From Pedosphaera sp. (GTDB taxonomy: Bacteria > Verrucomicrobiota > Verrucomicrobiia > Limisphaerales > SIBH01), in NCBI GenBank assembly GCA_031414955.1, contig JANOQV010000184.1, forward strand, positions 96,001 to 160,000: DNA of 64,000 nucleotides, given 5' to 3'. Both the position numbers and the translations under genes were made by a program. Under the pieces are notes generated by a model. The model saw nothing but the letters and a program-made list of their open reading frames with translations, had not been told where the DNA came from and did not search any database. Positions within the stretch are counted from its first letter, which is position 1; each line of letters begins with the position of its first letter. Of this stretch, positions 13,274-45,758 are shown piece after piece.

Positions 13274-13379
13274 TTGAACCTTTCCTAGTTTGTCATTTTT
13301 AAGCTGCGAAAGAACGCAGAGAACGCAGAGACAATTTCTGTTCCCGTCTTTCTTTGCGCTCTTTGCGTTCTCTCGCGGC
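12824..13379. repeat. 30-bp terminal inverted repeats bracketing the GxxExxY gene, plus a third arm copy at 13303-13331
   Basis: GCCGCGAAAGAACGCAAAGAGCGCAAAGAA (12824-12853) versus TTCTTTGCGCTCTTTGCGTTCTCTCGCGGC (13350-13379), 29/30 complementary. Confidence 0.9.
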
Positions 13380-13384
13380 AAAAT

Positions 13385-14311
13385 TCATGTTCGCACCTTC
13401 GCCAATGTCTCCTTGAGCGCGCGCGCGGACGCCTGCAAGCCCATCAACTCCTTCGGCCACAATTTGATCTCCACATGCTTCAGCACGCCGCCGCGACCGA
13501 CGACGCTCGGCACGCTCAGGCAGATGTCGCGAATGTCGTAGGCGCCTTGGACAAGCGAGGAGATTGGGAGCAGCGCCTGTTTGTTCAGCAGCACGGCGTG
13601 AATCACATCACGGATGGCGACACCCACGGCCCAGCCCGCGCCGCCTTTGCGCTTGATGACTTCCGCGCCGCTGCCTTTGGTGCGCTCGAAGACGGCGTTC
13701 TGGAAACCGGGCGAACATTCTGGCAAGCCGGTGAGCGGCAAGCCGTTCACCGCCGCGCTCGACCAAATCGGGAGCATCGAATCGCCGTGCTCGCCGAGGA
13801 TGAGCGCCTTCACCTGCGTGGGCGCGAGCTTGAGTTCCTCGGCGATGAACGAACTGAAGCGCGAGGTATCGAGCATCGTGCCAAGTCCATAGACTTGCTG
13901 CCAAGGCAGGCCGAGCCGCTGCACGGCGAGTTGCGTGAGAATGTCCACCGGGTTCGAGACCACGAAAACCTGCGCGTCCTTCTTGAAGCCCGCCGCCTTG
14001 ATGCTGTCGAGGATGCCGACGAAGAGCGCCACGTTGCGGTTGATGAGGTCGAGGCGCGATTCATCTGGCTTGCGGCGCAGGCCGGCCGTGATGAGGAAAA
14101 TGTCGCTGTCTGCGGCACGAGTGTAGTCACCCGCGTAAATCTTCTGGTCGCCACAGAACGCGCTGCCATGCAACAAGTCGAGCGCCTCGCCCTCGGCCAG
14201 ATCCTTGTTCGCGTCGAGGATTTGCAGCTCGGCCACCAGCCCGCCGCATTGCAGCGCAAACGCCGCGCAAGAACCTACACGGCCACCGCCGCCGATGATT
14301 GTGACTTTCAT
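13385..14311 (-). CDS. Lactate/malate dehydrogenase family protein (BMC-associated)
   Basis: 'IIGGGGRVG', 'TAGLRRKPDESRLDL', 'VVSNPVD', 'GTMLDTSR', 'LGEHGDS'. Confidence 0.92.
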   Translation of the reverse strand: MKVTIIGGGGRVGSCAAFALQCGGLVAELQILDANKDLAEGEALDLLHGSAFCGDQKIYAGDYTRAADSDIFLITAGLRRKPDESRLDLINRNVALFVGILDSIKAAGFKKDAQVFVVSNPVDILTQLAVQRLGLPWQQVYGLGTMLDTSRFSSFIAEELKLAPTQVKALILGEHGDSMLPIWSSAAVNGLPLTGLPECSPGFQNAVFERTKGSGAEVIKRKGGAGWAVGVAIRDVIHAVLLNKQALLPISSLVQGAYDIRDICLSVPSVVGRGGVLKHVEIKLWPKELMGLQASARALKETLAKVRT

Positions 14312-14324
14312 AAATTGTTTGGTC

Positions 14325-14819
14325 TCACTCGCCAGCCTGTTGCAACACCTGCGCCACGAAGGACGGGGCCAGATGAAATCCATTCTGCGCCAACTGCGTG
14401 AGCCAGGGCCGTAGCGCGTCAATGCGTCCGGCTTGCTTCCCTTGCATCAGCAGGCCCACCACGCCTCGGGTGCGAAGGCCCAATTGACGCGCGGCTTCAC
14501 GTCCATCCGCTTCATCCATCAGCAGAAAATCCGGCCCGGTTTCTGCGGCGAGGGCAATGGCTTCAGCTTCTCCGTCGTGGAGATTCTGCCGCAGCGTGCG
14601 AACCAAGGGCGCGTTGCCCGGCGTCACGACTTTCAACCAGCCTTGTTTCGCGGCGTTCTGTACATCATTCACGACCTGATGCGACTTACCCTGCACAATC
14701 ACCTCGCGCCACACCGCGTCCGGCACGCGCACTTCCGAAAAGAACAGCGGGAGCAAGGCGAACTGCCCAATCGCACTGAGGTGAATCAGCACTGAGGAAT
14801 CACTGACGGCGGTTGGCAT
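14325..14819 (-). CDS. DUF3368-type PIN-domain protein (putative toxin)
   Basis: 'VSDSSVLIHL', 'VPDAVWREV', 'LHDGEAEAIALA', 'LLMDEADGR'. Confidence 0.85.
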   Translation of the reverse strand: MPTAVSDSSVLIHLSAIGQFALLPLFFSEVRVPDAVWREVIVQGKSHQVVNDVQNAAKQGWLKVVTPGNAPLVRTLRQNLHDGEAEAIALAAETGPDFLLMDEADGREAARQLGLRTRGVVGLLMQGKQAGRIDALRPWLTQLAQNGFHLAPSFVAQVLQQAGE

Positions 14820-15057
14820 CTTGGCAATCCTCCGCCAGATCAGCCCCGCCGTAGTGGCGGGGGATGGCGCGTTTGCCGAGCACTGCTTCCCATTCCAACC
14901 GCGTCAGACCGGCGAGGGTGCAGGCTTTGCCTGACGCGAGCAGATTCTGAGTGTAGAGCGCCACGGCCAGTTCCAGCCGCAGGCGCGCTTCGATTTCCTG
15001 CGGCGGGACACGCACGCTGGAGAGCACATCGGCGGGAATTTCTAGTGTGACACTCAT
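14800..15057 (-). CDS. UPF0175-family protein (putative antitoxin)
   Basis: 85 aa; 'LRLELAVALY...SGKACTLAGL'; overlaps the PIN gene start. Confidence 0.85.
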   Translation of the reverse strand: MSVTLEIPADVLSSVRVPPQEIEARLRLELAVALYTQNLLASGKACTLAGLTRLEWEAVLGKRAIPRHYGGADLAEDCQDANRRQ

Positions 15058-15107
15058 GGATGGAGATTAGTGCGGGGCATGGTTTGGGGCAAGGTTCGTC
15101 GAGTTAG

Positions 15108-16178
15108 TTATTTCATCTGCGCCATCAGTTGATCCGTGATCGCCTTCACCATCTCCTCCGCCTGCGGATCGAGTCCGACGGTCGGCGTCTCCTTCGCCGG
15201 CAGCGCGCAGGTCGCGCCCGGACGCCAGTCGCCGGTGTCGCAGAGTTCGCATTCCTTCATGCCGTAGCGCGGGTCCACAAAGCCGAGTGACTTCTTGATG
15301 TTCAGGATGTCGTTCATCTGCGGCCCGGTGAAGGTCTGGATCGGCTTGCCCAACTGGCCGGCGACCACAATCGTGCGACAATAGGCCTCGATGATTTCCA
15401 TCCGCCAATAGGCTTCCTCGATGTTGTTGTGCGACCACGTCACCACGCCGTGATTCGCCATCAGGATGGTGTTGTATTGGTCGGTGAGATCGGCCACGAG
15501 CTTGCCCATGTCCGCAGAACCGGGCGTGCGATACGGCGCGACACCAACGGAGCAGAACACCTCATACTCCGGCAACATGCACGTCGGCGGCGCTTCTCCC
15601 ACGACGGCGAACGCGGTCGCATAAGGCGGATGACAGTGACAGGTGGCCACCGCCTGCGGCTGGCGCTTCATGATCTGCAAGTGCATCAGGATTTCGCTGG
15701 TGCGCTTCTTCGTGCCGCAAAGCTGGTTGCCCTCGAAATCCACGAGGCACATGTCCGACGGCTGGAGCGAGCCTTTGCTCACCAGCGTGGGCGTGCAGAT
15801 GGCAATGTCGTCGCCGACGCGGATGGCCATGTTGCCGCCGTTGCCGTCCACGTAGGCGCGTTTCCACAAGCGATGTCCCATCGCGCAAATCTGTTCCTTG
15901 AAGGCGTGGCAGTAGGGCGAGTTGAAAAACGCTTCGAGGTCGGCCTTGGCTGATTTCGAATTAAGCGGGGTGGCCGGAGCCGTCGTGGTCGTGGCCAGGC
16001 TGCTGGCTGGGGATGCAGCGACCGTTCCGCTCGGCGTCGGGGTCCGCCGAGCATACGCGTAGTCAAGCAACACGTCCTTGGCGGAGGGCGTCAGGATGGC
16101 ATCGGCCGGGAGATTATTCGGATCGCCACCCTTGGCGATGATGGCTTCTATTTCTTTGGCAGTGATGACCGTGTTCAT
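15108..16178 (-). CDS. Class II aldolase (fuculose/rhamnulose-phosphate aldolase-like) with C-terminal encapsulation peptide
   Basis: 'GNGGN', 'TPTLVSKG', 'TSEILMH', 'HCHPPYATA', 'MANHG'; amphipathic tail 'AEEMVKAITDQLMAQMK'. Confidence 0.9.
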   Translation of the reverse strand: MNTVITAKEIEAIIAKGGDPNNLPADAILTPSAKDVLLDYAYARRTPTPSGTVAASPASSLATTTTAPATPLNSKSAKADLEAFFNSPYCHAFKEQICAMGHRLWKRAYVDGNGGNMAIRVGDDIAICTPTLVSKGSLQPSDMCLVDFEGNQLCGTKKRTSEILMHLQIMKRQPQAVATCHCHPPYATAFAVVGEAPPTCMLPEYEVFCSVGVAPYRTPGSADMGKLVADLTDQYNTILMANHGVVTWSHNNIEEAYWRMEIIEAYCRTIVVAGQLGKPIQTFTGPQMNDILNIKKSLGFVDPRYGMKECELCDTGDWRPGATCALPAKETPTVGLDPQAEEMVKAITDQLMAQMK

Positions 16179-16232
16179 ATTGGTGAAAGCGAATTGAGCA
16201 GTTGCACGCGGTTGCGAGGACGTGCGCGGCGC

Positions 16233-16424
16233 GTCCCCGGAGGGGACGAATGTGAATAGCCCCGGGTGCAACCCGGGGTGCGAACCGCAGAGATGCCGCA
16301 ACCCCGGAGGGGTTGAACCCGGCACGTCGCATCACGGTTCAACCCCTCCGGGGTTGAACTCACTCCAAGCACTGCCAACCCCGGGTTACACCCGGGGCTA
16401 TTCACGTCGAAGCCCTCCGGGCTT
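16233..16424. repeat. Composite palindromic element with nested hairpins
   Basis: Perfect 21-bp IR 16299-16319/16336-16356 inside IR 16252-16278/16379-16405. Confidence 0.88.
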
Positions 16425-16463
16425 CTTCGCGTGTGCGTTGGCGATTGTGATGGCAACTTCATC

Positions 16464-16766
16464 TCACTTCATTGGGTTGTAGAAAATCTCATCCACCAGA
16501 GCGGCATTGATGGCATCAATCGGCAGCGGGGTTTCAAAAGGCTGCGCGGCTTCGCGGCCCTCAATGTAGCCAATGGTCTGGCCCACGCCGCCACCGAGCG
16601 CGTCATAGACCACGAGGCTCGGATCTTTGCTCAGACCAGCGGGCGTCTCCGTGCCGCTCTGGTAATGCTCGCGCGTGAAGGGCGAAATGATGAGCCAGCG
16701 CGCGCCCGTCAGTTCCGGCAGAGCTTTGCTCAAGGTGACGCGACCGATGACGGCACCAAGTTTCAT
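16464..16766 (-). CDS. BMC-P pentamer vertex protein (EutN/CcmL family)
   Basis: 'MKLGAVIGRVTLSK', 'VVYDALGGGVG', 'PIDAINAALVD'. Confidence 0.85.
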   Translation of the reverse strand: MKLGAVIGRVTLSKALPELTGARWLIISPFTREHYQSGTETPAGLSKDPSLVVYDALGGGVGQTIGYIEGREAAQPFETPLPIDAINAALVDEIFYNPMK

Positions 16767-17563
16767 CGCGCAGCCTCCTTCTGCTGGGCGCTGTGCGCCT
16801 GCGGGCCATTCGTGTAAACGTGAAAATCCGTGCCCCAAAAACTCACGGCCTCGCGATGCGGGAACAGCCCCGATTCGCCCAGCACCGAGGCGTAAAGCGG
16901 CGCGCTGTAGATGAGCCAGATTTGCCGCGGATGCTCCGCCACGGAACGCCGCACGTTCTCCACGAACTGCGACAGGATCACGGCGTCGAACGGATTGTAG
17001 AGGAAGAAGACGTTCTCGTCGCCGCGCCACTGGTGTTGGGTCACGTCCGCATGGGTCACTTCAATCGGCGCGAGTGATTGAACTTTGGTGCGGAAGATTT
17101 CGATGTTCTGGCGCGCCCGCTCGCAGAACCTGGGCGAGAACTCGATGCCGACGACCCGCTTGAAATTCTGCCGGGCCGCGAGCATCAGCACCCGTCCTTT
17201 ACCCGAGCCGACATCGACAAAAGTGCTGCCCGCCGGCGGGCGCAGGTGCTTGAGCAGAGCCAGGAACGGGCGTGCCTTGGTGGCCTTGTAGCGCACGGAG
17301 TGCGCGAGGTTTTTCAGGTCGGACTCGAACTGATCGCAGTCCACCGCGCGATTGGTTTCCGTGCCGTGGCGCCAGTCGAAGAACGAATCTTCGATGGTGT
17401 TGAAAACGATCTTCAACGTCGTGCCCAGGCCGCGCTGTTGAATGCTTTCCCTCGCCCAAGACATGGCCTGCGAGAACTTGCCGAACACGCCGATGGCCGC
17501 CATGCCCAGTCCGGCGTCGCCCGGCTCGTTCGCCAACAACGTGATGAATTGCGGCTCGCTCAT
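16763..17563 (-). CDS. Class I SAM-dependent methyltransferase
   Basis: 'TFVDVGSGKGR', 'VVGIEFS', 'FFLYNPF'; ATGA overlaps at both ends. Confidence 0.85.
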   Translation of the reverse strand: MSEPQFITLLANEPGDAGLGMAAIGVFGKFSQAMSWARESIQQRGLGTTLKIVFNTIEDSFFDWRHGTETNRAVDCDQFESDLKNLAHSVRYKATKARPFLALLKHLRPPAGSTFVDVGSGKGRVLMLAARQNFKRVVGIEFSPRFCERARQNIEIFRTKVQSLAPIEVTHADVTQHQWRGDENVFFLYNPFDAVILSQFVENVRRSVAEHPRQIWLIYSAPLYASVLGESGLFPHREAVSFWGTDFHVYTNGPQAHSAQQKEAAR

Positions 17564-17838
17564 ACCGGCACCCCCGGTTCGAGTTCGTCCACGATGCCGA
17601 CCACGAGCCAACGGGCGGGACTTTTTAGATCGCCCACCGCTTTCCTTGCTTCGGAGCCATCGCTGGAAATCACCACACGCTGGTGCATCCCCGCACCGTG
17701 AGCGTCGATGGCGATTTGCGGCGCGCCTTCGGGTTCGCCCGCGTTGTTGATCGGCTGGCAGATAACGAGCCGCCAGCCCTCGAAGCTCGGATGCTTCCGG
17801 GTGGCGACCACATTGCCTTCGACGCGCGCGAGTAACAT
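17560..17838 (-). CDS. BMC-P pentamer vertex protein (EutN/CcmL family)
   Basis: 'MLLARVEGNVVATRKH', 'AIDAHGAG', 'VVGIVD'. Confidence 0.92.
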   Translation of the reverse strand: MLLARVEGNVVATRKHPSFEGWRLVICQPINNAGEPEGAPQIAIDAHGAGMHQRVVISSDGSEARKAVGDLKSPARWLVVGIVDELEPGVPV

Positions 17839-17841
17839 GGG

Positions 17842-18864: not shown

Positions 18865-18870
18865 CCGCGG

Positions 18871-20367: not shown

Positions 20368-20372
20368 AATTT

Positions 20373-21233
20373 TTAGTTCTTCAGCCGCTTGGCTTTCTTC
20401 GCTGATTGCGTCAGCGCGAGGTAATTTTCGTTGGTGACAACTTTGCGCCCGCTGCGCTGTTCCAGTTCACGCCGCGCGTTGCCTGCGACCGTGCCACCCT
20501 CGTGCGCCGCCTGTTTGTTTGGATCAAATCCCTGCGTGTCTTTGTTGCGCGTGATCTCCGTCGTCGCCGCCTCGCCCAGCATCGAGAAGATGAGTTCGAG
20601 GTCGCTCATGTGGTCGCGCAAGTTCTCGCGCTTGAGTTTCTTGAACTCGGCGTATTCCGTCGGCGTGAGTCCGAACGTCGCCTTAGAAATCTCCGCCGTA
20701 AGGATCGAGTATTCGCGCTGTTCCTTCACGCCGCGCTTCTTCCACTCGTCGGTAAGTTCGTCGCGGATGGCGATGGAGCGCAGCCGCTTCTCAATCCAGT
20801 CGTCGGAGTAACCCTTGGCCTTGTAGATCGCGCGCGTGCGCTTGGTCGCCAGTTCCGGGTCTTCAATTTCCTGGATGCGCTCGTAGCCAACCTTGGCGAG
20901 CCAGCGTTTGAACGGCTCGGCTTTAGGGCTGGGGATGGATTGAATCAGGCGGAAGATGCCCTCAGTGTTCCAGCACTGAAGCGATTGCCGTCCGCCGGCT
21001 GTCTCGAACTCCAAGCCAAGGGGGGGGGCAATTTGCCCCCCCCCTTTGAGAGCTTCGGCCAATTGCAGGTCACGCTTGCGCATGTCCTTAAAATAGCCTT
21101 GTGGATTCGCCGAATCCGTCAGCACCGCCACGATGTCCGTGATGACAAACCACCACTCATTCCCATGAATGACGCGGCGGATTTCCTTCCGCTGAAACAG
21201 CGCGAGGCGTCGCTCTGGTGGTTGGTCGCTCAT
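20373..21233 (-). CDS. Bro-N domain (phage antirepressor-like) DNA-binding protein
   Basis: 'IRRV...WWFVITDIV', 'LIQSIPSPKAEPFKRWLAKVGYERI', 'ENLRDHM'. Confidence 0.88.
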   Translation of the reverse strand: MSDQPPERRLALFQRKEIRRVIHGNEWWFVITDIVAVLTDSANPQGYFKDMRKRDLQLAEALKGGGQIAPPLGLEFETAGGRQSLQCWNTEGIFRLIQSIPSPKAEPFKRWLAKVGYERIQEIEDPELATKRTRAIYKAKGYSDDWIEKRLRSIAIRDELTDEWKKRGVKEQREYSILTAEISKATFGLTPTEYAEFKKLKRENLRDHMSDLELIFSMLGEAATTEITRNKDTQGFDPNKQAAHEGGTVAGNARRELEQRSGRKVVTNENYLALTQSAKKAKRLKN

Positions 21234-21242
21234 CTTGGCTCG

Positions 21243-21554: not shown

Positions 21555-21556
21555 AA

Positions 21557-21641
21557 AAGTAATCAGTTATCAGTGTTCAGTAATCAGTGGAAACAGCCGC
21601 ACGTCGCGACTGAATACTGATTACTGGGTCACTGATTACTT
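21557..21641. repeat. Heptamer (AATCAGT-type) inverted-repeat hairpin filling a gene junction
   Basis: AAGTAATCAGTTATCAGTGTTCAGTAATCAGT versus ACTGAATACTGATTACTGGGTCACTGATTACTT. Confidence 0.88.
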
Positions 21642-21920: not shown

Positions 21921-21956
21921 ATGTTTTCTTTGTGTTGATGGTTAAGAGTTAGAAAT

Positions 21957-23150
21957 TCAGTTATTCGAGTTTTCCAAGAGTCGTTTGGTTTCGCGGGCCA
22001 CGACGAGTTCCTCATTCGTCGGAATCACCAGCACCTTCACGCGCGAGTTCGTGGCGCTGATGACAGCTTCGGTGGCGCGGGTGGAATTGTTTTTCTCCGA
22101 GTCGAGCACGATGCCGAGCTGGTCGAGGTTCGCGCAAATCGCGGCGCGCAGTTCGGCGCGGTTCTCGCCGATGCCGGCGGTGAACACGATGGCGTCGGCA
22201 CCGTTCATCTGGAGGAAGTAGCCACCGATCCAGCGGCGGGCTTCGCTGACGAATACGTCAATCGCAAGCTTGGCCTTGGCGTTGCCCTTCGAGGCGGCGT
22301 CCTGGATGTCGCGAATGTCGTTCGAGAGCCCGCCGGCAAGCCCCTTCAATCCGCCTTCCTTGGCAAACTGGCGTTGAGCCTCTTCGATCGAGAGGCCGAG
22401 TGTCTTGACGACATAGGGCAGGGCCTCGGCATCAAGATCGCCCACGCGATTGTTGTGCGGCAAACCGGACTGCGGACTCATACCGAGACTGTTGCCGATG
22501 GCCACGCCGTTCAGGATGCCCGTGATGCTCGAACTGCCGCCGAGGTGGCAGGAGATGACGCGCAGCGGCGTGTTATGTGCGACGGACTTGTTGCCATTCA
22601 CGTAGAGGCTTTGCGCACGGGCGGCGACGTCTGCCCGTTCAAGCATTTCCGCACTGCGCTCAGCGATGAACTTGTGGCTCGCGCCATGAAAGCCCCAGCG
22701 ACGCACGCCGATGTCGTGCCAGGAATCCGGCACGGCGTAGCGCATCATCGGCTCAGGCGCGAACTGATAGAAGGCGGTCTCGAACAGACCGACCAGCGGC
22801 ACCGCCGGCATCCGCTGAGCGAAGAGGCGAATGCCGGTGATGTAGGGCGGATTGTGCGCCGGCGCGAGGCCGTTGTAATCCTCCATCGCCTTCAGCACGC
22901 GCGCATCAAGCCGCACACAGCCAGTCACATCCTTCGCGATGACGGTCTTAAAGCCAACGGCTGCGAGTTCGCTTTCGTTGGCGATGGCCCCGGCTTCCTT
23001 GAGCTGCGCGAGGCAATCCTCAATCGCCTTGGGATAATCGGTCACGCGCTCGAAGCCGCCCTTGTGGAGCAGCTTCTCGGCGCTGTTCGAGAAGTCGAAC
23101 AGGCGCCACTTGAGCGAGGTCGAGCCGATGTTGGCGATCAGAATCTTCAT
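21957..23150 (-). CDS. ackA: Acetate/propionate kinase
   Basis: 'NIGSTSLK', 'APAHNP', 'RRWGFHGASH', 'CHLGG', 'FTAGIGEN', 'IPTNEE'. Confidence 0.92.
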   Translation of the reverse strand: MKILIANIGSTSLKWRLFDFSNSAEKLLHKGGFERVTDYPKAIEDCLAQLKEAGAIANESELAAVGFKTVIAKDVTGCVRLDARVLKAMEDYNGLAPAHNPPYITGIRLFAQRMPAVPLVGLFETAFYQFAPEPMMRYAVPDSWHDIGVRRWGFHGASHKFIAERSAEMLERADVAARAQSLYVNGNKSVAHNTPLRVISCHLGGSSSITGILNGVAIGNSLGMSPQSGLPHNNRVGDLDAEALPYVVKTLGLSIEEAQRQFAKEGGLKGLAGGLSNDIRDIQDAASKGNAKAKLAIDVFVSEARRWIGGYFLQMNGADAIVFTAGIGENRAELRAAICANLDQLGIVLDSEKNNSTRATEAVISATNSRVKVLVIPTNEELVVARETKRLLENSNN

Positions 23151-23152
23151 TA

Positions 23153-23241
23153 GCGCGGAGCGCGGAATGCGGAGTGCGGAACACTTAATCCGATGCGCGG
23201 CAGCTTGTGCTGTTCCGCGTTTCGAGTTCCGCGTTCCGCGT
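23153..23241. repeat. Heptamer (GCGGAAC-type) inverted-repeat hairpin at the BMC-H/ackA junction
   Basis: Arms 23153-23182 and 23212-23241. Confidence 0.85.
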
Positions 23242-23520
23242 TCATTGCAGCCACTTGCCGAGAACTGCCAGTCCGTCGTGCGGGCGCGGAATCACCTGCA
23301 CGCTGACGATGGAGCCGACTTGCGAAGCCGCAGCCGCGCCGGCGTCCACAGCCGCCTTCACGCTGGCGACGTCGCCACGGAAAAACGCCGTGACATAGCC
23401 GGAGCCAATTTTTTCCCAGCCGGTGAAGGTGACGTTCGCGGATTTGAGCGCGGCGTCCACGGCCTCGAAGAGGGCGCAGAGGCCTTTGCACTCGATCATG
23501 CCAATTGCTTGTTGAGCCAT
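23242..23520 (-). CDS. BMC-H hexamer shell protein
   Basis: 'AIGMIECKG...DAALKSANV...[10 protein letters not shown]...VIPRPH'. Confidence 0.96.
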
Positions 23521-23556
23521 AATGTTTCTTAAAAGTTGATGGTTGAGTGTTGAGAG

Positions 23557-23847: not shown

Positions 23848-23887
23848 AGTTTGTTATTTGTTGGGTTGATAAAATGGTTGGGAAAAA

Positions 23888-23968
23888 GTGAAGAGTTGAA
23901 GGGTTGAAGAGGCAAAACAGCGGCGGCGGGTTGAACTCTTCAACCCTTCACCTTTCAACTCTTCAACT
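23888..23968. repeat. Octamer (GTTGAAGA-type) inverted-repeat hairpin at the PduL/BMC-H junction
   Basis: GTGAAGAGTTGAAGGGTTGAAGAG versus CTCTTCAACCCTTCACCTTTCAACTCTTCAACT. Confidence 0.82.
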
Positions 23969-23975
23969 CGGGATT

Positions 23976-24656
23976 TCATTTAATCAGTTCGCACGACGTG
24001 TCCGGCTGCAAGTTGCAGGCATTGCCCTCGTCGGTGTCGATGTGAACTTCCAGCTTGAAACTCTTGTCCACGCGGCAGAGCATCCGGTCGAGCGTGATGC
24101 CGCAGTCGCCGCCAATTTTCAGTTTCATCCAGTCGCCCTGCTTCACGCCGTAGTAATCCGCATCCGTCGGTCCCAAATGGGCATGGCGCAGGGCGCGAAT
24201 AATGCCGGACTCCATCTCGAAGAAACCCGCCGGCCCCATCAACATGCCGCCGAGCGTGCCTTTAATGTCGCCGGAACTGCGGAGCGGCAAGTCAAAGCCC
24301 AGCGCGATGCCGTCCGTGTAAGCCAGTTCGACCTGGTTCAACGTCCGGCACGGGCCGAGGATGCGGAGATTGGAAATGACGCGGCTGCGCGGCCCCACGA
24401 GCGTCACTGCCTCCTTCGCCGCGAACTGCCCATCCTGGTAAAGCCACTTGTGAACCTGAAGCTGATGCCCCTTGCCGAAGAGCGCCTCGACGGCTTCTTG
24501 AGTGAGATGGCAATGGCGGGCGCTGATGTTCACCACCAAGGGATTCGGTGAGGAAGCCGCGCTGGGCAATGATTTGCCGAGCCGGGCGTAAACCGATTGC
24601 CGAACCAAGTGCTCGACGACGGCACGGTGCGGAGGCGATTGGATTGCCTGTGACAT
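23976..24656 (-). CDS. pduL: PduL-type phosphate acyltransferase with N-terminal encapsulation peptide
   Basis: 'SARHCHLT', 'LRILGPCR', 'ALRHAH', 'HIDTDEGNA'; N-terminal 'VVEHLVRQSVYARL'. Confidence 0.93.
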   Translation of the reverse strand: MSQAIQSPPHRAVVEHLVRQSVYARLGKSLPSAASSPNPLVVNISARHCHLTQEAVEALFGKGHQLQVHKWLYQDGQFAAKEAVTLVGPRSRVISNLRILGPCRTLNQVELAYTDGIALGFDLPLRSSGDIKGTLGGMLMGPAGFFEMESGIIRALRHAHLGPTDADYYGVKQGDWMKLKIGGDCGITLDRMLCRVDKSFKLEVHIDTDEGNACNLQPDTSCELIK

Positions 24657-37900: not shown

Positions 37901-37929
37901 AGAACCGCGAATGGACACGAATTCAGAAC

Positions 37930-38163
37930 GGAGCGCCGCCGTCCCCGGCGGCTTGGGACGGGTGAAAACATTGACGGCTGAATCAAACCAGAGATGAACG
38001 CGAGCAGTAACTTGAGCATCGTAAGCCAGCGAAGACGCTGGCGCTCCGGAGCGCCGCCGTCCCGGCGGCTTTCGGCAAACGAATAGCTTAAAGGCTGAAT
38101 CAAACCAGTGATGAGCACAGGCAGGAAATCCAACGCGCAAAGCCGGCGGGCCGCCGGCGCTCC
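37930..38163. repeat. Two tandem REPIN-like units (37930-38047, 38048-38163)
   Basis: Each unit is GGAGCGCCGCCGTCCC... + core GGCTGAATCAAACCAG(A/T)GATGA + ...GGCGCTCC. Confidence 0.9.
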
Positions 38164-38917
38164 TGCCCGTCGTTCCACACCGCCTTACAATCCCGGCCTG
38201 CAAAAACTTGTTGAAGGCAAACAGGCATGGACCGTACCGCTGGACGATGACGCCAAGGCCAAGGGCTTTCTCGGCTGGCATCAGCGCGGTTATGTGCCGC
38301 ACTACGATGCGCCTGGGCTGACGCAAATCGTCACGATTCGACTGGCCGACTCGCTGCCTGCCAGTCGCCGGGGCGAATGGGAGCATTTGTTGAGCATCGA
38401 AGACGACCGCCAGCGTCGTCGCCGTTTGGAGGAATATCTGGATCGCGGCCTGGGCGAATGCTGGCTCGGACGGCCCGAAATCGCGACGCTGGCCGAGTCC
38501 GCGCTGCGCCACTTTGATGGCGAACGCTACGGCTTGGGCGCATGGGTGGTGATGCCGAATCACCTGCACCTGCTCGTGGATGTCTGGGATGTGCCCCTGT
38601 CCAAGTTGATTGCAGGTTGGAAGAGCTTCATCGCGCACGAAGCCAATCAGGTTTTGCATCGAACCGGAGAATTTTGGCAGCGCGAATATCTCGACACGGT
38701 AATCCGGGATGAGACGCACCGGCGGACGGCGGTGAAATATATCGAGAACAATCCGGTGAAAGCGGGTTTTGTCCGCGAGGCGAAGGAATGGAATTGGAGC
38801 AGCGCGCGCCATCGGGATGATTACGGGAACTTGCCGCCTGTGCCCGCAAAAGGAGCGTCCGCAGAACGGAGCGCCGCCGTCCCGTCGGCTTTGGACGAAC
38901 GAAAAGTCGAGGGCTGA
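38111..38917 (+). mobile_element. REP-associated tyrosine transposase-like protein (RAYT, Y1 HUH family)
   Basis: 'WHQRGYVPH', HUH 'VVMPNHLHLL', 'FWQREYLD', catalytic 'YIENNPVKAG'; flanked by REP-like palindromes. Confidence 0.9.
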
Positions 38918-38983
38918 ATCAAACCAGAGATGAACGCGCGCAGTGATTTGAACATCGTAAGCCGGCGAGGACGCCGGCGCTCC
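38868..38983. repeat. Third REPIN-like unit; supplies the RAYT stop codon
   Basis: Same arms and core as 37930-38047. Confidence 0.9.
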
Positions 38984-38994
38984 GGCGCGGAGAC

Positions 38995-39090
38995 GCAACC
39001 CTTTCAGGGTTGGGAAAATCCGGGAACGAACACCCAGGGTAGTCGCTGCGCGCCAACCCTGGGCTGGAGGACGGAACGCCGTTGGCGTTC
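38995..39090. repeat. Triple-hairpin palindromic element; a similar architecture occurs at about 45764-45835
   Basis: CAACCCTTTCAGGGTTG, CCCAGGGT...ACCCTGGG, GAACGCCGTTGGCGTTC. Confidence 0.7.
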
Positions 39091-39114
39091 AACTGGAATG
39101 AATCAACAAGAACC

Positions 39115-40539
39115 ATGAAAACAGACAAGGGCCAAACGATTCCGCAGTGTTTCATGTGCCAAACGTCGGTCACAAATCCCAAAGCGATTTTCGAATTGAA
39201 CGTTTTTGCTGTGGTTGGAAATAAATTTGTTCGATATGGCTATGGGATAGGCGGCACCAGACCGCGTGAAGGAGAGCATTCAATTTTTACGCCGGTCGGC
39301 AGGTCTAGCATCGTCGGAGGGTGTTGCAAAACTTGCACGATCAAGTGTCAGGAAGAGTGGTTGGCCAAATGCGGGAAATCAAAGAAGGAGACTGGCAGAT
39401 TCTTTATTGTGTTTCTCTGTGTAGCCTTGATCGGCGTCGTCTGCTTTCCACTGGTCAGCAGACTTCATTTAGCGAGCGCATGGCACATCTTACCGATTGC
39501 CGTTGCCGGCCTTGGCGCATTAGGTGCGCTTGGCGTTTTGATGCAAGCGCACGAGCACCGCGCAAAGGCCAGGAAAGGATTCTCGATCGAGACGTGCTTC
39601 ACAAACTCAGAATCTTTCAAAAAAGAGGCCACAGCCATAGCAACTTCCATCGATGTTTCGAGAGTGCGATTCAAGTTTGGAAACCCATCAGCTCTCGGCC
39701 CCTTGCTCCTAGAAGTGAAACAGATGGAGGCCTTCGCTGCGAAGGAGAATAATCTGTTGTTACTAACCGATGTTGACATTCTTTCCAATCTCACAGCCTG
39801 TGATTTCTATGAAGATCGGTATTGGTATCTAACATCTGCCGTGTCAGGGGAATCACTTTTAGGATTCGATACGGAGGGGAATCCCAGCGGCTTCAAGCGG
39901 ATTTACCCGAACATCCCCCCAAAGATGGTAGAAGTGAAAAACATCCGATTCGCAGCTGATAAAAATGCGAGCGTCGCCTGTTTTTTTGCCGAAATCTCAG
40001 GCTTATCAGACGTTGAAGAGCAAGAACTCGAACCAAAGCCTCCAAAAGAATTTGAATGTGTGGGCCAAGGCGTTGTGGTTTGTAGCGAAAAGACAGTTGT
40101 CTTAAAATCCCCGGGTAGTTTAGCCCACCTGCGACTTCCGGATATTGTTCGACTCGAACTTTCACTTGCCAAAAAGAGCGGTGGACGGGTGATCGCATCT
40201 TTCGTAGGCGGAGTGATTGGCTTCTTTATTGGGTTTTGCGCTGCTATTGTTGCGTTTCTTAATTCGCGACAGGTCATTGCGGCGGAGAAACTTTTGCTGA
40301 TCACTTTCGTTTTGGGGCCAGGACTCGGTGCAATTACAGCGCAGGCTTTCGTTTCAAAGAAGAAACCTGATTCCGGCTTGCTCGTTCTCGCTTTCATCCT
40401 GTCGGACGGCACTCGTCACGCGGTGTGCCTGGAACCTAAAATGGTAACCAAGGCTCGCGACGTTCTAACGTCAGCAGGACTTTCAGTTATCGACGAAACA
40501 GCAACGGCAGTTGCTTCAACCAACCTTCCTCGAAGCTGA
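39115..40539 (+). CDS. Unknown AT-richer membrane protein with two CxxC pairs
   Basis: 474 aa uninterrupted in AT-richer DNA; 'CFMC', 'CKTC'; two pairs of hydrophobic helices. Confidence 0.75.
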   Translation: MKTDKGQTIPQCFMCQTSVTNPKAIFELNVFAVVGNKFVRYGYGIGGTRPREGEHSIFTPVGRSSIVGGCCKTCTIKCQEEWLAKCGKSKKETGRFFIVFLCVALIGVVCFPLVSRLHLASAWHILPIAVAGLGALGALGVLMQAHEHRAKARKGFSIETCFTNSESFKKEATAIATSIDVSRVRFKFGNPSALGPLLLEVKQMEAFAAKENNLLLLTDVDILSNLTACDFYEDRYWYLTSAVSGESLLGFDTEGNPSGFKRIYPNIPPKMVEVKNIRFAADKNASVACFFAEISGLSDVEEQELEPKPPKEFECVGQGVVVCSEKTVVLKSPGSLAHLRLPDIVRLELSLAKKSGGRVIASFVGGVIGFFIGFCAAIVAFLNSRQVIAAEKLLLITFVLGPGLGAITAQAFVSKKKPDSGLLVLAFILSDGTRHAVCLEPKMVTKARDVLTSAGLSVIDETATAVASTNLPRS

Positions 40540-40600
40540 TGTCGGGATCCTTAAACATTTTGGGGCTTTGTTGGCGCTTGGATTTTGATTTTGGGAATTC

Positions 40601-40720
40601 ATGAACCGCACCGCCCATCTCGACCACGACCCGCTCGACGCGCGGCAGTTCGAGCTGGCCGTGCGCCGGCTGGCCAATGCGTTGAGCTACGGGCAGGAAA
40701 GCTCGCCGTTCCTCGGCGCG
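40601..40720 (+). pseudogene. Duplicate of the first 40 codons of the DUF58 gene
   Basis: 117/120 identical to 40915-41034; the three differences are synonymous. Confidence 0.92.
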
Positions 40721-40731
40721 ATCGTTTTGGA

Positions 40732-40848
40732 GGAGCGCCGCCGTCCCGGCGGCTTTGGACGAGCGAATAAATTAACGGCTGAATCAAACCAGAGATGAAC
40801 GTGAGCAGCAATTCGCGCATCGTAAGCCGGCGAGGACGCCGGCGCTCC
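40732..40848. repeat. Fourth REPIN-like unit
   Basis: Same arms and GGCTGAATCAAACCAGAGATGAAC core. Confidence 0.9.
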
Positions 40849-40914
40849 GGCACGTTGCATGCGTTCCCCAGTGTGTCGTCCGTTGAAGTTTGGATGTTTC
40901 CCTGAATTCCGATC

Positions 40915-41772
40915 ATGAACCGCACCGCCCATCTCGACCACGATCCGCTCGACGCGCGGCAGTTCGAGCTGGCGGTGCGCCGGCTGGCCAACGCGTTGAG
41001 CTACGGGCAGGAAAGCTCGCCGTTCCTCGGCGCGGGCATCGAGTATGTGCAGTCGCGCCCCTACCAGTCCGGCGACCCGGTGAAGTTCATCGACTGGCGC
41101 GTGACGGCGCGCACGGGAAAATTTCACGTCAAGGAATACGAGGCGCCCAAGCAGATGCCGGTCTATCTGCTCGTGGACACGTCGGCGTCGATGTGCGTCA
41201 GCTCGCAGCCGTTGAGCAAATACGCCTGGGCGGTGCAAATCGCCGGCGGCCTCGCGCTGGCGGCGATTGACCACATGAATCCCGTGGGCGTGCTGACCGT
41301 GGGCGAGCGCGACCTGCATCACAAGCCGACGCTGGCGCGCAGTTCGGTGATGCAATGGATGCACGCGCTGCGCCGCTATCATTTCGCCGAGGGCACGACG
41401 TTGGGCCGGCGCGTGCGCGAATTGGTGCCGCGCGTCGAGCAGCGCTGCCTGTTCGTGGTGCTGAGCGACCTGCACGACCCGGACGCGATTCCCGCCATCA
41501 AGCTTATGGCGCAGGATCACGATTGCGTGGTGCTGCATCTCGAAGACCCGGCGGAGCGCGGGCGTCTCGGCGGCGGCATCTACCGCGCGGTCGAAGCGGA
41601 GACGGGGCGCGAGTTCGTGGCGCACGGGCGCAGCCGGTGGTTCGATCAGGAAGAGACGCACAAGCTCTCGCGCGCTGGTGTTGATTATCTGCGCCTGCCG
41701 ACGAATGAACCGATGCTGCCACGCCTGCGGCATCTCTTCAAAAATCGCGGCGGCACGAGGAGGGGGGCGTGA
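40915..41772 (+). CDS. DUF58 protein (MoxR-associated)
   Basis: 'GIEYVQSRPYQSGD', 'IDWRVTAR', 'VKEYE', 'VDTSASM', 'LSDL'. Confidence 0.92.
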   Translation: MNRTAHLDHDPLDARQFELAVRRLANALSYGQESSPFLGAGIEYVQSRPYQSGDPVKFIDWRVTARTGKFHVKEYEAPKQMPVYLLVDTSASMCVSSQPLSKYAWAVQIAGGLALAAIDHMNPVGVLTVGERDLHHKPTLARSSVMQWMHALRRYHFAEGTTLGRRVRELVPRVEQRCLFVVLSDLHDPDAIPAIKLMAQDHDCVVLHLEDPAERGRLGGGIYRAVEAETGREFVAHGRSRWFDQEETHKLSRAGVDYLRLPTNEPMLPRLRHLFKNRGGTRRGA

Positions 41773-42794
41773 AAAAAAAGCCCCAAGCTCCAAGCTCCAA
41801 CCTCCAGGGAAGATCCAAGCTTCAAGCACCCAGGGGATGGCGCGTCGCTTGGGCAGGGAGCGCCGAGCATCGCTCGGCTTTGGGCATAGCCACGCACGTT
41901 CGTGCCGAGCGATGCTCGGCGCTCCGTTCTTCAGTGTGGTGCCGATTGGATCTTGGAACTTGGTGTTTCTCTGGTGCTTGGAGCTTGGTGCTTGGTGCTT
42001 TTCTCCTGTCCGCTTCAGCGATCTGGGCGGCGACCAACCCAACCAACACCGCTTCACGCAACATCGGCATCGAGGGCAAGGTCACCGTGGCCCTGCCCAA
42101 GCCGGACTACAAACCGCGTCCGCTCGACGACCGCACGGAATTAATTCTGCGCATCGAGAGCGTGAAGCCGTTGTCCAACGGCCAGCACAACTACGAGTTC
42201 TTCTACATGGGCCTCGAACAGGGCGCGTACAAGCTCGCGGACTTTCTCATTCGCCCGGACGGCACGCGGCCTGATGAACTGGGCGATCTGCGCATCCAGG
42301 TGCGCGCGATGCTGCCCGAGGATCACGACGGCAAGCTCAACACCTACGTGCCACGACTGTTTCCGTTCGTCGGCGGCTATCGCGCGGCGCTGGTCATCCT
42401 CTGCGTGCTCTGGGTGGGCGGCATCGCGGCTTACATTATCCTCACACGGAAAAAGCGCGTGGTGGCCGCGCCGGTGGCGGTGGTGCCCGAGCCATCGTTC
42501 GCCGAGCGGCTGCGTCCGCTGGTGGAAGCGGCAGCGGAAGGAAAACTCTCCGTTCAAGACCAGGCCAGCCTGGAGCGGCTGCTCATGGGCTACTGGCGGG
42601 AGAAGCTGAACTTCTCCGGTCTAGGCGTGGCCGAGGCGCTGGCGCGGCTCAAAGCCCACGCTGAAGCGGGCGACTTGCTGCGCGCGCTGGAGCGCTGGCT
42701 GCACCAGCCGGGCGGAGCGACGAAGGAAGAGGTGGCGGTGCTGTTACAGCCGTATCGGCAGGTGTCGGCGGCGGTCCAAGGAGGGGCAGAGTGA
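41769..42794 (+). CDS. Bat-operon-type membrane-anchored protein whose N-terminus is encoded by a palindromic element
   Basis: GTGA overlap with DUF58; signal-like 'LVLGAFLLSASAIWA'; internal TM; start uncertain. Confidence 0.7.
   Translation: MKKKPQAPSSNLQGRSKLQAPRGWRVAWAGSAEHRSALGIATHVRAERCSALRSSVWCRLDLGTWCFSGAWSLVLGAFLLSASAIWAATNPTNTASRNIGIEGKVTVALPKPDYKPRPLDDRTELILRIESVKPLSNGQHNYEFFYMGLEQGAYKLADFLIRPDGTRPDELGDLRIQVRAMLPEDHDGKLNTYVPRLFPFVGGYRAALVILCVLWVGGIAAYIILTRKKRVVAAPVAVVPEPSFAERLRPLVEAAAEGKLSVQDQASLERLLMGYWREKLNFSGLGVAEALARLKAHAEAGDLLRALERWLHQPGGATKEEVAVLLQPYRQVSAAVQGGAE
41776..42002. repeat. Heptamer (CCAAGCT-type) hairpin with a nested perfect 22-bp REP-like inverted repeat (41857-41878/41904-41925)
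   Basis: Outer arms about 41776-41830 and 41946-42002; inner GGAGCGCCGAGCATCGCTCGGC and its exact reverse complement. Confidence 0.9.
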
Positions 42795-42938
42795 AGATCC
42801 AAGATCCAAGATCCAAGATCCAGAGAAGCGCCAAGCTCCAAACACCAACCGACGGCGGGCAGCACCGCGACACGAAAGCACGTTGGATCTTGGTGTTTGG
42901 ACCTTATCTGGATCTTGGATCTTGGATCTTGGATCTTT
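42794..42938. repeat. Heptamer (GATCCAA)n / (TTGGATC)n hairpin at a gene junction
   Basis: AAGATCCAAGATCCAAGATCCAAGATCC versus GGATCTTGGATCTTGGATCTTGGATCTT. Confidence 0.92.
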
Positions 42939-42948
42939 TCCCCCGCGC

Positions 42949-43884
42949 ATGAGCTTCCACCATCCAGTCTTCCTCTGGCTGCTCGCCCTGCCCTTCGCCT
43001 GGGCTTTCTGGCAGTGGACGCGGCGTGGACATCTGGTGGTCGTGCCATTCGACCACGGGCCGCAACGCGAAGGCCGCCGGCTGCGCGTGCTGGTGAATTG
43101 CGCGCAGACGCTGCCCGCGCTGTTGCTCGCCATCGCAGTTCTTATTCTCGCCGGCCCGCGCCGGCCCGCGCCGCCGGAGAACGAGCGCATCCTGAACAAC
43201 ATCATCATCTGCCTCGATGTGTCCGGCTCGATGACGGCGCCCTTCGGCAGCTATCGCGGCCGCGCGGCCAAGACGCGCTTCGACGGTGCCATGGAAGCGG
43301 CCAAGGACTTCTGTGAATACCGCAAGGGTGACGCGTTCGGCCTGACCATCTTCGGCTCGGAGTATTTGCACTGGTTCCCGCCGACCAAAGAGTTGTCCGC
43401 GATTCGCAATGCGCTGCCGTTCGTACGTCCGCAGAACATGCCGCCGTGGTTTGGCGGCACGCTCATCGCGCGGGCACTGCGTGGTTGCAAGGACCGCCTC
43501 GCGCGCACCAAGGAAGGCGACCGTGCCATTATCCTGATCACGGACGGCGGCAGCGCGGACTTCGGGAATGGCGGCGACCGGCAGATCGCGCAGGAACTGG
43601 CCGAGCACAAGATCCGCGTCTTCACGATTTTGATCGGCAATGACCTGTTCGGCACGGGCGGTATTTACACCATCGGCGCGCTCACGAGCGGCAAGGTCTT
43701 TCAGGCGGGAGACCCCGGCGCTTTGGAAACGATCTTCCGCGAGATCGATCAGATGCAGAAAGCGCAGTTCAAGCAGACCACCTCCGACTGGGTGGATTAT
43801 TACAGGCCGCTGGCTTGGGCGGGACTGGGCATCGCTGCAATCTGGGGATTGTCGCTGTTGGGACTGAGATACACACCGTGGTGA
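42949..43884 (+). CDS. VWA-domain protein (BatA-like)
   Basis: N-terminal 'FHHPVFLWLL'; MIDAS 'DVSGSM'; 'GGT'; 'LITDG'; C-terminal TM. Confidence 0.88.
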   Translation: MSFHHPVFLWLLALPFAWAFWQWTRRGHLVVVPFDHGPQREGRRLRVLVNCAQTLPALLLAIAVLILAGPRRPAPPENERILNNIIICLDVSGSMTAPFGSYRGRAAKTRFDGAMEAAKDFCEYRKGDAFGLTIFGSEYLHWFPPTKELSAIRNALPFVRPQNMPPWFGGTLIARALRGCKDRLARTKEGDRAIILITDGGSADFGNGGDRQIAQELAEHKIRVFTILIGNDLFGTGGIYTIGALTSGKVFQAGDPGALETIFREIDQMQKAQFKQTTSDWVDYYRPLAWAGLGIAAIWGLSLLGLRYTPW

Positions 43885-43888
43885 AAAC

Positions 43889-44893
43889 ATGAGCCGGGAA
43901 GAAATCATCGCCATCGCCTCGTGGGCCGCTTGCGGCGCCGTAGCGCTGGGAATTTTCGCGGAATGGCTGCACGCGCGGCGCCTTCGCCGGCTGGCGCGGC
44001 TGGCCTTCGGTCCGGAACAGGAACCGCGGCTCTGGACGAAGCTCGTGCCGCCGTTGCGCGTACTTGGCCTGGCCGGCGTAGTGTGGGCGCTCGTCGTGTT
44101 GATGGGTTTCGAGGGTTCGAGCCGCAGCCGCGAACGCACCGCCAAGGCCACGCGTCATCTCATGGTGATGCTCGATGTCTCACCCAGCATGTTGTTGAAG
44201 GACGGCGGCGAGCACGCTTCGCAGACGCGCGCGGCCCGCGCCGCGGAATTGCTCCGCTCCGTGATGGAGCGCGCGCCGAGCGCCGAGGTGAAGATCACGA
44301 TGGCGTGCTTCTACACGGATTCCATGCTGCTGGTGAAGGAGTGCTCCGACCGCGAGGTGATCTGGAATTTTGCTGACAATTTACCGCTCTACATCGCCTA
44401 TCGTCCGGGTAAAACTGACATGGTGAAATCCCTGAACACCGCCGGCGAGTTCGTGAAGGACTTCCCGCGCAAGAGCACCACGCTGCTCGTGCTCTCGGAC
44501 GGCGACACGGTGCCGGACTCAGGACTGAAGCCGATGCCCTCATCGGTCACGGACATCATCTTCGCCGGCGTGGGAGATCCGATGCGCGGGACGTTCATCG
44601 ACGGCCATCTTTCGCGGCAGGACAACGGATCGCTCTCGCAGCTCGCGCGGCGGTTGGGCGGGAATTACCACAACGGCAACGTGAAACATGTGCCGAGCGA
44701 AATGCTGCGCCACCTGCTCGCGCCGGATGAGACGAGCGAGAAATTCAAAGTGAACCTGCGTGTGCTCGCCATCATCATTCTGGGTGCGAGCGCATCGCTG
44801 CTGTGCCTGCTGCCGTTGTTGCTGGAATACTTCGGCAGCGCGTGGAAGCCGGTGGTGCGTGCGGTGAAGCAGGAAGAAGAGGTGGCCGCGTGA
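43889..44893 (+). CDS. VWA-domain protein (BatB-like)
   Basis: Two N-terminal TMs; MIDAS 'DVSPSM'; 'VLSDGD'. Confidence 0.88.
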   Translation: MSREEIIAIASWAACGAVALGIFAEWLHARRLRRLARLAFGPEQEPRLWTKLVPPLRVLGLAGVVWALVVLMGFEGSSRSRERTAKATRHLMVMLDVSPSMLLKDGGEHASQTRAARAAELLRSVMERAPSAEVKITMACFYTDSMLLVKECSDREVIWNFADNLPLYIAYRPGKTDMVKSLNTAGEFVKDFPRKSTTLLVLSDGDTVPDSGLKPMPSSVTDIIFAGVGDPMRGTFIDGHLSRQDNGSLSQLARRLGGNYHNGNVKHVPSEMLRHLLAPDETSEKFKVNLRVLAIIILGASASLLCLLPLLLEYFGSAWKPVVRAVKQEEEVAA

Positions 44894-45017
44894 ACTGGCG
44901 AAACATCAAATACCAAACTTCAAACATCAAAGAAACAGCAAGCACCGAGCAGCAATCAGCTGGCGGCGGTGGACGTTCGGTTGGTGTTTGGAGTTTGTCC
45001 TCGAAAGGAGTTCTCCA

Positions 45018-45758
45018 ATGAAAAAACTGTTCTTGTTCTTCTGGCTCCTGCTGCCGCTGCCCGTGATCGTCTGGCACTACGGGCCGGGGCAAAAATGGTT
45101 CGCGCGCGATCAGGCGCACACGCTCATCCAGCGCGCGCAGCAATTTGAGTCAGAACGGAAATGGAGCGAAGCCGAGTCGCTCTATCGCGAGGCCGCCGGC
45201 AAGGTGCGCAACGAGGACCCCAAGCTTAAGACCCAGCTCGACATTGCCCTCGTACGGCAGCGTTACCGGCAAGGGGGTGCGGTCGAATCCATCGACATGA
45301 TCGACAGCGTGATCAGCGACGCGAAATTTCACCAGCAACCGGCGGAGATTCAACGCGAAGCACGCGAACTGGCCGGACGAATCCATTATCACGCCGCCTG
45401 GGTCATGCGGCTCGAAGGCGCGCAAAAGGATCTCTGGATGGAAGAGGCGGAGTTGTCGCGGCAGAACTTTCGTTTGCTCTCCGAGGAAACGTTATCCGCC
45501 GGCAAGGCCAGCTACTCGCAGCTTCAGCAGACGAACCTGGAAAGCTCGGTGCGGTTGCAACGCATGGGCCTGGTGGATTTGATGGCGAAGCCCCTCCCCG
45601 AAGAGGGCCGCACGATGGTGGGCCAGGGCCTGACCGAACAGATGGGGCGCCGCCGCGGGCAGCGCGGCAACCGCCCGGGCATCGGTCCAAACGAAGACGC
45701 GCGCGAGCCGGGCAAGGGCGCAGGCACCTCGCGCTTCGAGCCGGGGAAGGGATCGTGA
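45018..45758 (+). CDS. Helical/TPR-like membrane-anchored protein (BatC-like position)
   Basis: GGAG RBS; hydrophobic N-terminus; helical repeats; Gly/Arg-rich tail. Confidence 0.7.
   Translation: MKKLFLFFWLLLPLPVIVWHYGPGQKWFARDQAHTLIQRAQQFESERKWSEAESLYREAAGKVRNEDPKLKTQLDIALVRQRYRQGGAVESIDMIDSVISDAKFHQQPAEIQREARELAGRIHYHAAWVMRLEGAQKDLWMEEAELSRQNFRLLSEETLSAGKASYSQLQQTNLESSVRLQRMGLVDLMAKPLPEEGRTMVGQGLTEQMGRRRGQRGNRPGIGPNEDAREPGKGAGTSRFEPGKGS

Follow-up and report, generated by a model that had tools for sequence, protein, structure and literature searches.

In a 64,000-nt stretch of contig JANOQV010000184.1 from Pedosphaera sp. (the window), palindromic elements fill gene junctions in two operons: a minus-strand bacterial microcompartment (BMC) locus with PTAC, BMC, acetate kinase, EutN, aldehyde dehydrogenase, aldolase and LDH genes, and a plus-strand MoxR-DUF58-vWA operon. 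Many of these hairpins are crossed by a mini open reading frame (ORF), here called a relay, that begins at the upstream stop codon and ends at the downstream start. In the comparison with frame-shifted elements that the original prediction for this DNA had called for, exit coupling across the genome is about 2.5-fold more frequent than the null, an excess indicative of selection for an unbroken path of the ribosome. The hairpins are probably selfish inserts that have been filtered by selection for ribosome continuity, the encoded peptide being a by-product; we put the probability of this reading at roughly 0.7. The original prediction had spoken of translation-transparent insertions, either tolerated or built, and its tolerated half is supported by this exit bias together with the -4 overlaps that relatives show at the same junctions.

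Gene starts were taken from our own trained hexamer caller, which placed 4989 genes in the draft source genome (6.55 Mb, 62% GC) and recovers the Pfam-confirmed genes of the window. Among 1628 co-directional gaps of 40 to 450 nt, 298 have a stem score of at least 14 (the 99th percentile of 400 intragenic windows is 13.5). The tested set comprises 121 junction-filling hairpins (score ≥13, start ≤35 nt from the upstream stop, end ≤45 nt from the downstream start), 84 with arms built from 7-mers and 37 others. An ATG at -4 or -1 of the upstream stop is present in 35/84 of the 7-mer hairpins versus 108/820 hairpin-free gaps; as had been cautioned, such an entry overlap is uninformative, since it comes free if an insert landed in an old overlap, and the exit was tested instead. 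For the null, the loop is lengthened at its centre by 0, 1 or 2 nt, which keeps composition and both flanks, and the outcome is evaluated as a Poisson-binomial; exits within -8 to +10 of the start count as relays unless a narrower range is given. Our first binomial P values were too liberal and were dropped in favour of this conditional three-phase test. With ATG entry, 22 of 35 7-mer hairpins relay against 8.7 expected (P = 1e-7); in the same 35, 20 exits lie within -4 to +3 (8.0 expected) and 12 exactly at -4 (5.3 expected, P = 8e-4). GTG entry gives 13/31 relays (6.3 expected), and the other hairpins give 5/9 (2.0) with ATG and 2/7 (1.3) with GTG. Controls are flat, both for CTG or TTG entries (3/17 vs 3.3) and for hairpin-free gaps (19/104 vs 17.0). 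The bias is stable over four placements of the shift, and adding 14 short-gap hairpin junctions that our caller had called as fusions yields 42/87 relays against 19.0. In-frame fusion is not enriched (8 vs 9.3 expected).

The excess varies with the distance from the hairpin to the next gene. Relays occur at 24 of 33 junctions where the hairpin ends 1 to 10 nt from the start (9.0 expected), at 15 of 32 where it ends at 11 to 20 nt (7.3) and at 17 of 41 where it ends at 21 to 45 nt (9.0); when it ends more than 45 nt away, the excess is gone (4/79 vs 4.3). Shine-Dalgarno-like motifs are found in only 340 of 3715 genes of the source genome, so initiation should depend on open RNA. In addition, a stop falls within the last 11 nt in 21/39 cases where the downstream gene has no NTGA versus 8/55 where it has one (P = 8e-5). 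In a rival explanation, selection acts on ribosome cover of the hairpin (against Rho polarity, as protection from cleavage by double-strand RNases, or simply to open the hairpin for the next ribosome) and not on one ribosome being handed over. The distance dependence fits such unfolding, and the stems, at -40 to -77 kcal/mol, could plausibly be cut by RNase III. Both coupling models are left open in the accessible part of PMC12548453. However, exits cluster at -4 to +5 and not anywhere past the stem, and run-on frames are depleted (3 observed versus 13 in shifted phases). We regard cover without hand-over as the less likely reading, though a serious contender.

A second data set gives a similar picture. 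The CCAA-type pattern occurs in 29 of the 121 genomes of the order that were searched, and the replicate set consisted of two genomes (G046 and G037), three further genomes and at least 121 metagenome stretches, with genes assigned by the source-genome model. For hairpins with an ATG at -4 or -1, 19/27 relay against 8.3 expected (P = 4e-8), at least one orthologous pair still being counted in this number. Loci of the genomes G084, G042 and G114 yielded no assignable junction.

Five of the eight predicted cases in the window are clean relays, and alignment to relatives with empty junctions, which had also been proposed as a check, uncovered bare -4 overlaps at three of their sites. Hairpin strength was scored against 200 shuffles. 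At 42791..42952 (+), between the gene downstream of DUF58 and the first vWA gene, a 53-aa relay, entering by GTGA and leaving by ATGA, spans a 7-mer hairpin of the CCAAG family whose arms lie at 42794-42849 and 42882-42937 (fold z of the core -8.8). Of 12 distinct loci with this junction, 8 have a bare -4 overlap, and the rest hold four different inserts, three of which relay while one is fused. Between the second vWA gene and the next gene, a 43-aa relay (44890..45021, +; GTGA in, ATGA out) crosses a decayed CCAA-type 7-mer hairpin that folds weakly (z -1.8, with 5/200 shuffles as good) and is identical in a contig from a second study; 7 of 11 relatives have the -4 overlap, and all three inserts of 55 to 450 nt relay. 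The third site, 16175..16462 (-), has a 95-aa relay with its ATG 1 nt past the EutN stop and an ATGA exit onto the aldolase gene. Its element, too long for the shuffle scoring, is a long palindrome resembling repetitive extragenic palindromes (REPs), with 44-nt arms (16236-16279 and 16378-16421) that are 84% complementary and 15 loci in the genome; relatives have a -4 spacing in 13/30 cases and one within -8 to +10 in 20/30, and 3 of 7 inserts relay. Pooled over junctions with a tight spacing in some relatives, 14/19 inserts relay (6.7 expected), and where a tight spacing is rare or absent, 18/64 do (11.0 expected), although the P values of pooled relatives are overstated because kin are not independent. 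With the query used, the vWA operon was recovered in only 2 of 13 family genomes.

The two remaining clean relays lie in the BMC locus. At 23150..23245 (-), between a BMC shell gene and the acetate kinase gene, a 31-aa ORF (ATGA in, TAATG out) crosses a GCGGAAC-type 7-mer hairpin (z -3.3), and at 23854..23979 (-), after the PTAC gene, a 41-aa ORF with ATGA entry and a stop 6 nt before the BMC ATG crosses a TTGAAGA-type 7-mer hairpin (z -5.3). Hairpin-free relatives carry an AC-rich leader of 22 to 67 nt at the latter junction. At the former, a bare overlap is found in 0/29 relatives, and nearly every close relative has a hairpin of a different family. A stop-rich 7-mer hairpin without relay (21555..21635, -; z -6.7) lies between the BMC and EutN genes, where most relatives (loci L001-L030) have a hairpin of varying family; it may set the ratio of shell to vertex protein via RNA stability or processing. 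That these two junctions hold some hairpin in nearly every close relative would suit regulators that the host has domesticated to adjust how much downstream protein is made relative to upstream protein. Yet they are the junctions that keep the relay least (11/23 and 0/22 orthologous inserts, respectively), most relatives have no insert at the vWA junctions, and neither sequence nor length is conserved, making domestication very improbable. The suggestion that the elements tune downstream stoichiometry is not supported, as different families replace each other at one junction. Sites are used repeatedly without conservation of sequence, and some junctions can do without the relay. A function of the peptides was considered and rejected, given that peptides at orthologous junctions are unrelated. 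As further observations at this locus, the acetate kinase-BMC junction of one relative (L024) is occupied by an insert of 505 nt that has inverted arms and what looks like a small cargo gene, where most relatives have a plain leader of 20 to 60 nt. A second acetate kinase/BMC locus is present on the contig of the window (contig positions 537-1724; protein 91% identical), and its BMC-acetate kinase junction holds a different, 61-nt hairpin in which the entry frame ends early.

The bias could also have been inherited from master copies if start, open frame and terminal stop evolved within the elements, as proposed for mycobacterial interspersed repetitive units (MIRUs). Having stop-free arms and a 3' linker rich in T and C is indeed typical of the family, cargo-bearing cassettes appear to translate their arms as cargo N- or C-termini (on contigs C241 and C301 and in the GxxExxY cassette of the window), and 22 of the 84 7-mer elements have an ATG 0 to 15 nt past the stop, 16 of which relay. 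Against such a built-in relay, loops are unique in 73/84 elements and relay ORFs span 17 to 104 codons; the entry codon of inserts matches the ancestral start and spacing of the host; unrelated families relay at one site; and in genome G037 a young burst of 18 near-identical CCAAG-family copies (loci L092-L106 and L239-L255; 104-106 nt core, shared flanks) has no terminal ATG, most of these copies not filling coupled junctions. A built-in relay is improbable in our view. The second half of the earlier claim, that the insertions were built, is not supported, given the same G037 burst, the exchange of families at junctions, the unconserved lengths and the modest relay rate of the 23245 orthologues.

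Several observations weigh against filtering for ribosome continuity. About half of the hairpins are without relay (56/121 by one ORF); with chains counted, the 84 7-mer elements comprise 42 relays, 10 fusions and 32 that are neither, and 9 of the 33 hairpins ending within 10 nt of the start have no relay. The low relay rates at the BMC-acetate kinase and BMC-EutN junctions belong here as well. The thresholds were chosen after the data had been seen, the gene starts come from our own caller, and only 60 of 183 replicate rows were assignable to co-directional genes, the other 123 being dropped. Two finer signs of selection are mixed. Linker stops lie in the entry frame in 16/21 cases versus 7.0 expected, with no such effect in hairpin-free gaps, but the surplus of linker stops before genes lacking NTGA was not repeated in a small outside set (2/10 vs 5/22 where NTGA is present). 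Arm variants that spell TGA are rarer in frame (3/77) than out of frame (25/166) when both sets are pooled (P = 0.01), but the test is not significant in either set (P = 0.10 and 0.14), and the depletion of in-frame stops is weak for GTG entries (P = 0.29).

The selection of window cases deserves the same scrutiny. All eight mini-ORFs are real, with coordinates, lengths, start and stop codons and spacings correct in 8/8, but the list was selective, since six junctions with hairpins and no relay (8516, 21636, 37900, 45758, 49583 and 60861) were left out of it. Thirteen co-directional gaps of the window reach a stem score of 12; of these, 5 relay with exits within -8 to +10, 1 is fused and 7, the omitted six among them, have no single-ORF relay. 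Three of the eight cases are weak. The 29-aa ORF at 13299..13388 (-) runs over the first hairpin of the GxxExxY cassette (z -5.0), with its stop 25 nt ahead of the cargo ATG; a TTG lying 3 nt past the LDH stop shares the reading frame of the cargo. The other two are copies of one repeat family, D1, whose internal ATG supplies their apparent entry. The 62-aa ORF at 38930..39118 (+) starts at an ATG within a D1 repeat and crosses a second REP-like repeat (17 loci; too long to score) to an ATGA on ORF 39115-40539. The 36-aa ORF at 40795-40905 (+) lies in a segment (40599..40912) where a truncated duplicate of the start of DUF58 precedes a D1 repeat, and folds at chance level (z -0.3); it has no real upstream gene, that role being taken by the duplicate itself (40599-40720 versus 40913-41034, 122 nt, 98% identical).

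Common TGA stops, ATGA starts, stop-free repeats and picked hits could in principle create the whole pattern by chance, the more so as the entry overlap and one in three phases come free and the eight cases were chosen as just described. Yet both data sets beat the phase null by a factor of about 2.5 while the controls stay flat, and misassembled repeat numbers would blur the phase and not create a bias, so that we give chance or artefact almost no credence. In the contigs of four DNA runs, the element flanks and the 44890 element are confirmed; among the pieces listed, none spans the middle of the 41769 or 42791 hairpins, and among the joints listed there is no clean join that skips a whole element, contigs being prone to drop rare variants.

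The filtering that we favour would work as follows. The hairpins would belong to several selfish families, mostly solo forms, without cargo, of cassettes carrying four-helix-bundle (IVS-type) or GxxExxY nuclease genes, plus REP-like repeats. As the empty orthologues show, they land directly behind the stop and start signals of operon junctions. The old start codon, left of the insert, would become the start of the mini-ORF, while the next gene would use the right-hand start codon. In the main family the arms are stop-free in all frames, and therefore one phase in three ends on the downstream ATGA for free. Selection would then remove or repair other copies, leaving relays, in-frame fusions or downstream genes with room for their own initiation. 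A ribosome ending the upstream gene would restart at the overlap, melt the hairpin covering the next initiation region and terminate at the next start. What the DNA shows directly is the anatomy of the elements, the empty sites, the phase bias and the effect of distance; from these we infer translation and re-initiation, as well as a mobilising enzyme and the descent of solo forms from cassettes.

Some elements are read in frame into the next gene. As predicted, the element at 41769 is fused in this way: the N-terminus of gene 41769..42794 (+) is a CCAAG-family hairpin (arms 41776-41826 and 41952-42002) with a nested REP-like repeat at about 41855-41930 (52 loci in the genome), and, judged by eye, its hydrophobic 3' arm leads into an apparent signal peptide. 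Relatives have either an ordinary signal-peptide-like N-terminus from a -4 start or in-frame inserts, and six lineages carry different ones (the source genome, L032, L033, L036, L040 and L045). At 10 of 26 junctions with a called start inside the hairpin, the frame reads from a start at the upstream stop through the element into a signal-peptidase-like site, again by eye; candidates in the source genome are window 41769-42060 and sites on contigs C56, C65, C84, C184 (at 45155), C211, C231 and C261. The 5' part of a fused insert is basic and its 3' part hydrophobic, and such inserts seem to replace signal peptides. We tentatively extend this, at somewhat less than even odds, to the proposal that selfish hairpins with 7-mer arms are a widespread class pre-adapted for being read by ribosomes: because the period is 7, every frame gives the same stop-free peptide, with a basic or polar 5' arm and a hydrophobic 3' arm, and phase would decide whether a copy becomes a relay ORF or a fusion that takes over the signal-peptide role. 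Operon junctions would then be revolving doors through which many families pass, admitted on condition that ribosome continuity is kept.

Runs of period 7 are enriched in the genome (206, versus 10 to 56 for periods 4 to 12). The original prediction described the hairpin families as unrelated and their peptides as sharing no sequence, which holds only in part: a single CCAAG-type 7-mer family, with 58 loci in the genome, includes 41769, 42791 and 44890, and its peptides are alike in every frame because the period is 7. A CCAAG-type element consists of three units, a short core, more units and a unique loop, followed by the inverse. Paired CCAA-type elements are co-directional in 88/100 placed cases, compared to 1229/1826 background gaps, and the CCAAG family is almost confined to co-directional gaps (51/53 placed); REP-like families (15 to 112 loci) also occupy convergent and divergent gaps. 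The most abundant of the latter (112 loci, 51 at contig ends) occurs without relay at 8151-8516 and 60861-61100. Forty-six single 7-mer arrays, for example of the GTCCAAG and CTCAACT types, lie within called genes on many contigs and are apparently translated in frame.

The genome has four IVS-type four-helix-bundle genes (PF05635) and four GxxExxY genes (TIGR04256/PF13366) in co-directional junctions, each between inverted arms of the kind found in the hairpins; none of the arms flanks a known transposase. In the CCAAG-family cassette of contig C241, the order is arm, cargo, arm, loop and inverse arm, the first arm being in frame with the cargo. The GxxExxY (PD-(D/E)XK) cassette of the window (12821..13382, -) consists of an arm, loop, inverse arm, cargo and second inverse arm, and its last arm is read as the C-terminus of the cargo, with the stop 3 nt before the next ATG. 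Solo hairpins could arise by recombination between the two direct arms of a cassette, mobilisation by the cargo being putative; the 18 copies in G037 indicate that the solo form can spread. NTGA stands on both sides of many elements, target duplication beyond NTGA was not above background, and exit ATGA is no commoner than background (39/67 vs 348/592). 'Tandem inverse repeats' are known around such small genes, and the cassette class may already be in print.

The 16462, 38930 and 40795 elements are REP-like (15 to 17 loci), and the latter two adjoin a REP-associated tyrosine transposase (RAYT; 38108..38917, +; NF047646 above cut-off) with D1 repeats on both sides. RAYT and repeats are part of a larger MoxR-DUF58 insert (37901-40912) that also contains the duplicated DUF58 5' end and a low-GC orphan ORF of 474 aa (39115-40539) without Pfam or NCBIfam match; the junction measures 6 to 11 nt in 6 of 10 relatives, and three relatives have other inserts of 408 to 1039 nt. 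The microcompartment operon contains insertions with near-zero spacings (14325-15057 and 20373-21233, -), namely a DUF3368 gene accompanied by a small partner upstream of it, and a Bro-N gene, and the aldolase-LDH and EutN-aldehyde dehydrogenase junctions resemble cargo insertion sites. Rfam had no matches in the window at gathering score.

MIRUs reportedly go back to Supply et al. in 1997. The original prediction knew of no description of the relay pattern, but mycobacterial MIRUs have been described in just this way: according to the accessible parts of the two papers, they insert at start codons with an internal ORF that couples to the gene at -4 spacing (PMC12548453), and have tetranucleotide repeats and an ORF overlapping both adjacent genes (PMC3184786). 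Shared features, on these same texts, are short palindromic repeats within operons at start codons, ORF ends overlapping both neighbours at -4 and expression proposed to stay intact; our elements match in their co-directional placement within operons and their empty orthologous sites, and in the both-end overlapping ORF for about half of them. The differences are that MIRUs, as described there, form one family of 40 to 100 bp with tetranucleotide direct repeats, whereas several families of 60 to 290 nt with 7-mer arms and unique loops are found here, that we detect no duplication beyond NTGA, and that the bias is measured against a null together with its distance dependence. Our elements work like MIRUs but are not filed as members, given their verrucomicrobial host and 7-mer architecture; they are set apart by comparison with the MIRU description, not by sequence.

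Intergenic heptamer repeats before start codons in Beggiatoaceae, Cyanobacteria and Bacteroidetes (MacGregor 2015, PMC4679880) share the period of 7 and the position just upstream of starts within operons, and a translational role was suggested for them. In the accessible text, unlike our elements, they are for the most part direct repeats, built on a heptamer that contains a stop and interpreted as sites for protein binding, and that text does not mention inverted arms with bridging ORFs. According to the available part of Di Nocera et al. 2013 (PMC3733652), Opitutus terrae has REPs, which there also lie in frame within genes. Our window has a RAYT with flanking palindromes and REP-like families, but only a minority of the relay cases are REP-type, and the 7-mer hairpins fall outside the size and structure of the GTAG- or CGTC-tagged REP palindromes of 20 to 40 bp. 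The elements resemble miniature inverted-repeat transposable elements in their terminal inverted repeats, the arms measuring 33 to 56 nt; near-identical dispersed copies occur in G037 and not in the source genome. Our literature search, incomplete in coverage, found the MIRU, heptamer-repeat and REP papers and none on 7-mer-arm cassettes or a relay test over several families. New here are the multi-family statistic, the distance dependence and the in-frame fusions that seemingly replace signal peptides.

Dozens of independent insertions thus provide a natural genome-wide read-out of translational coupling. From them one can read off what selection accepts in a phylum largely without Shine-Dalgarno motifs, namely spacings of -4 to +5 from stop to start and hairpins at distances up to about 45 nt, and they take the MIRU proposal from anecdote to a measurable rule over element families. 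A class of unannotated ORFs of 30 to 60 codons and odd, repeat-rich N-termini in verrucomicrobial annotations are explained in the same way. Finally, empty, relay and broken versions of one junction are ready-made reporter pairs that can separate unfolding from re-initiation models.

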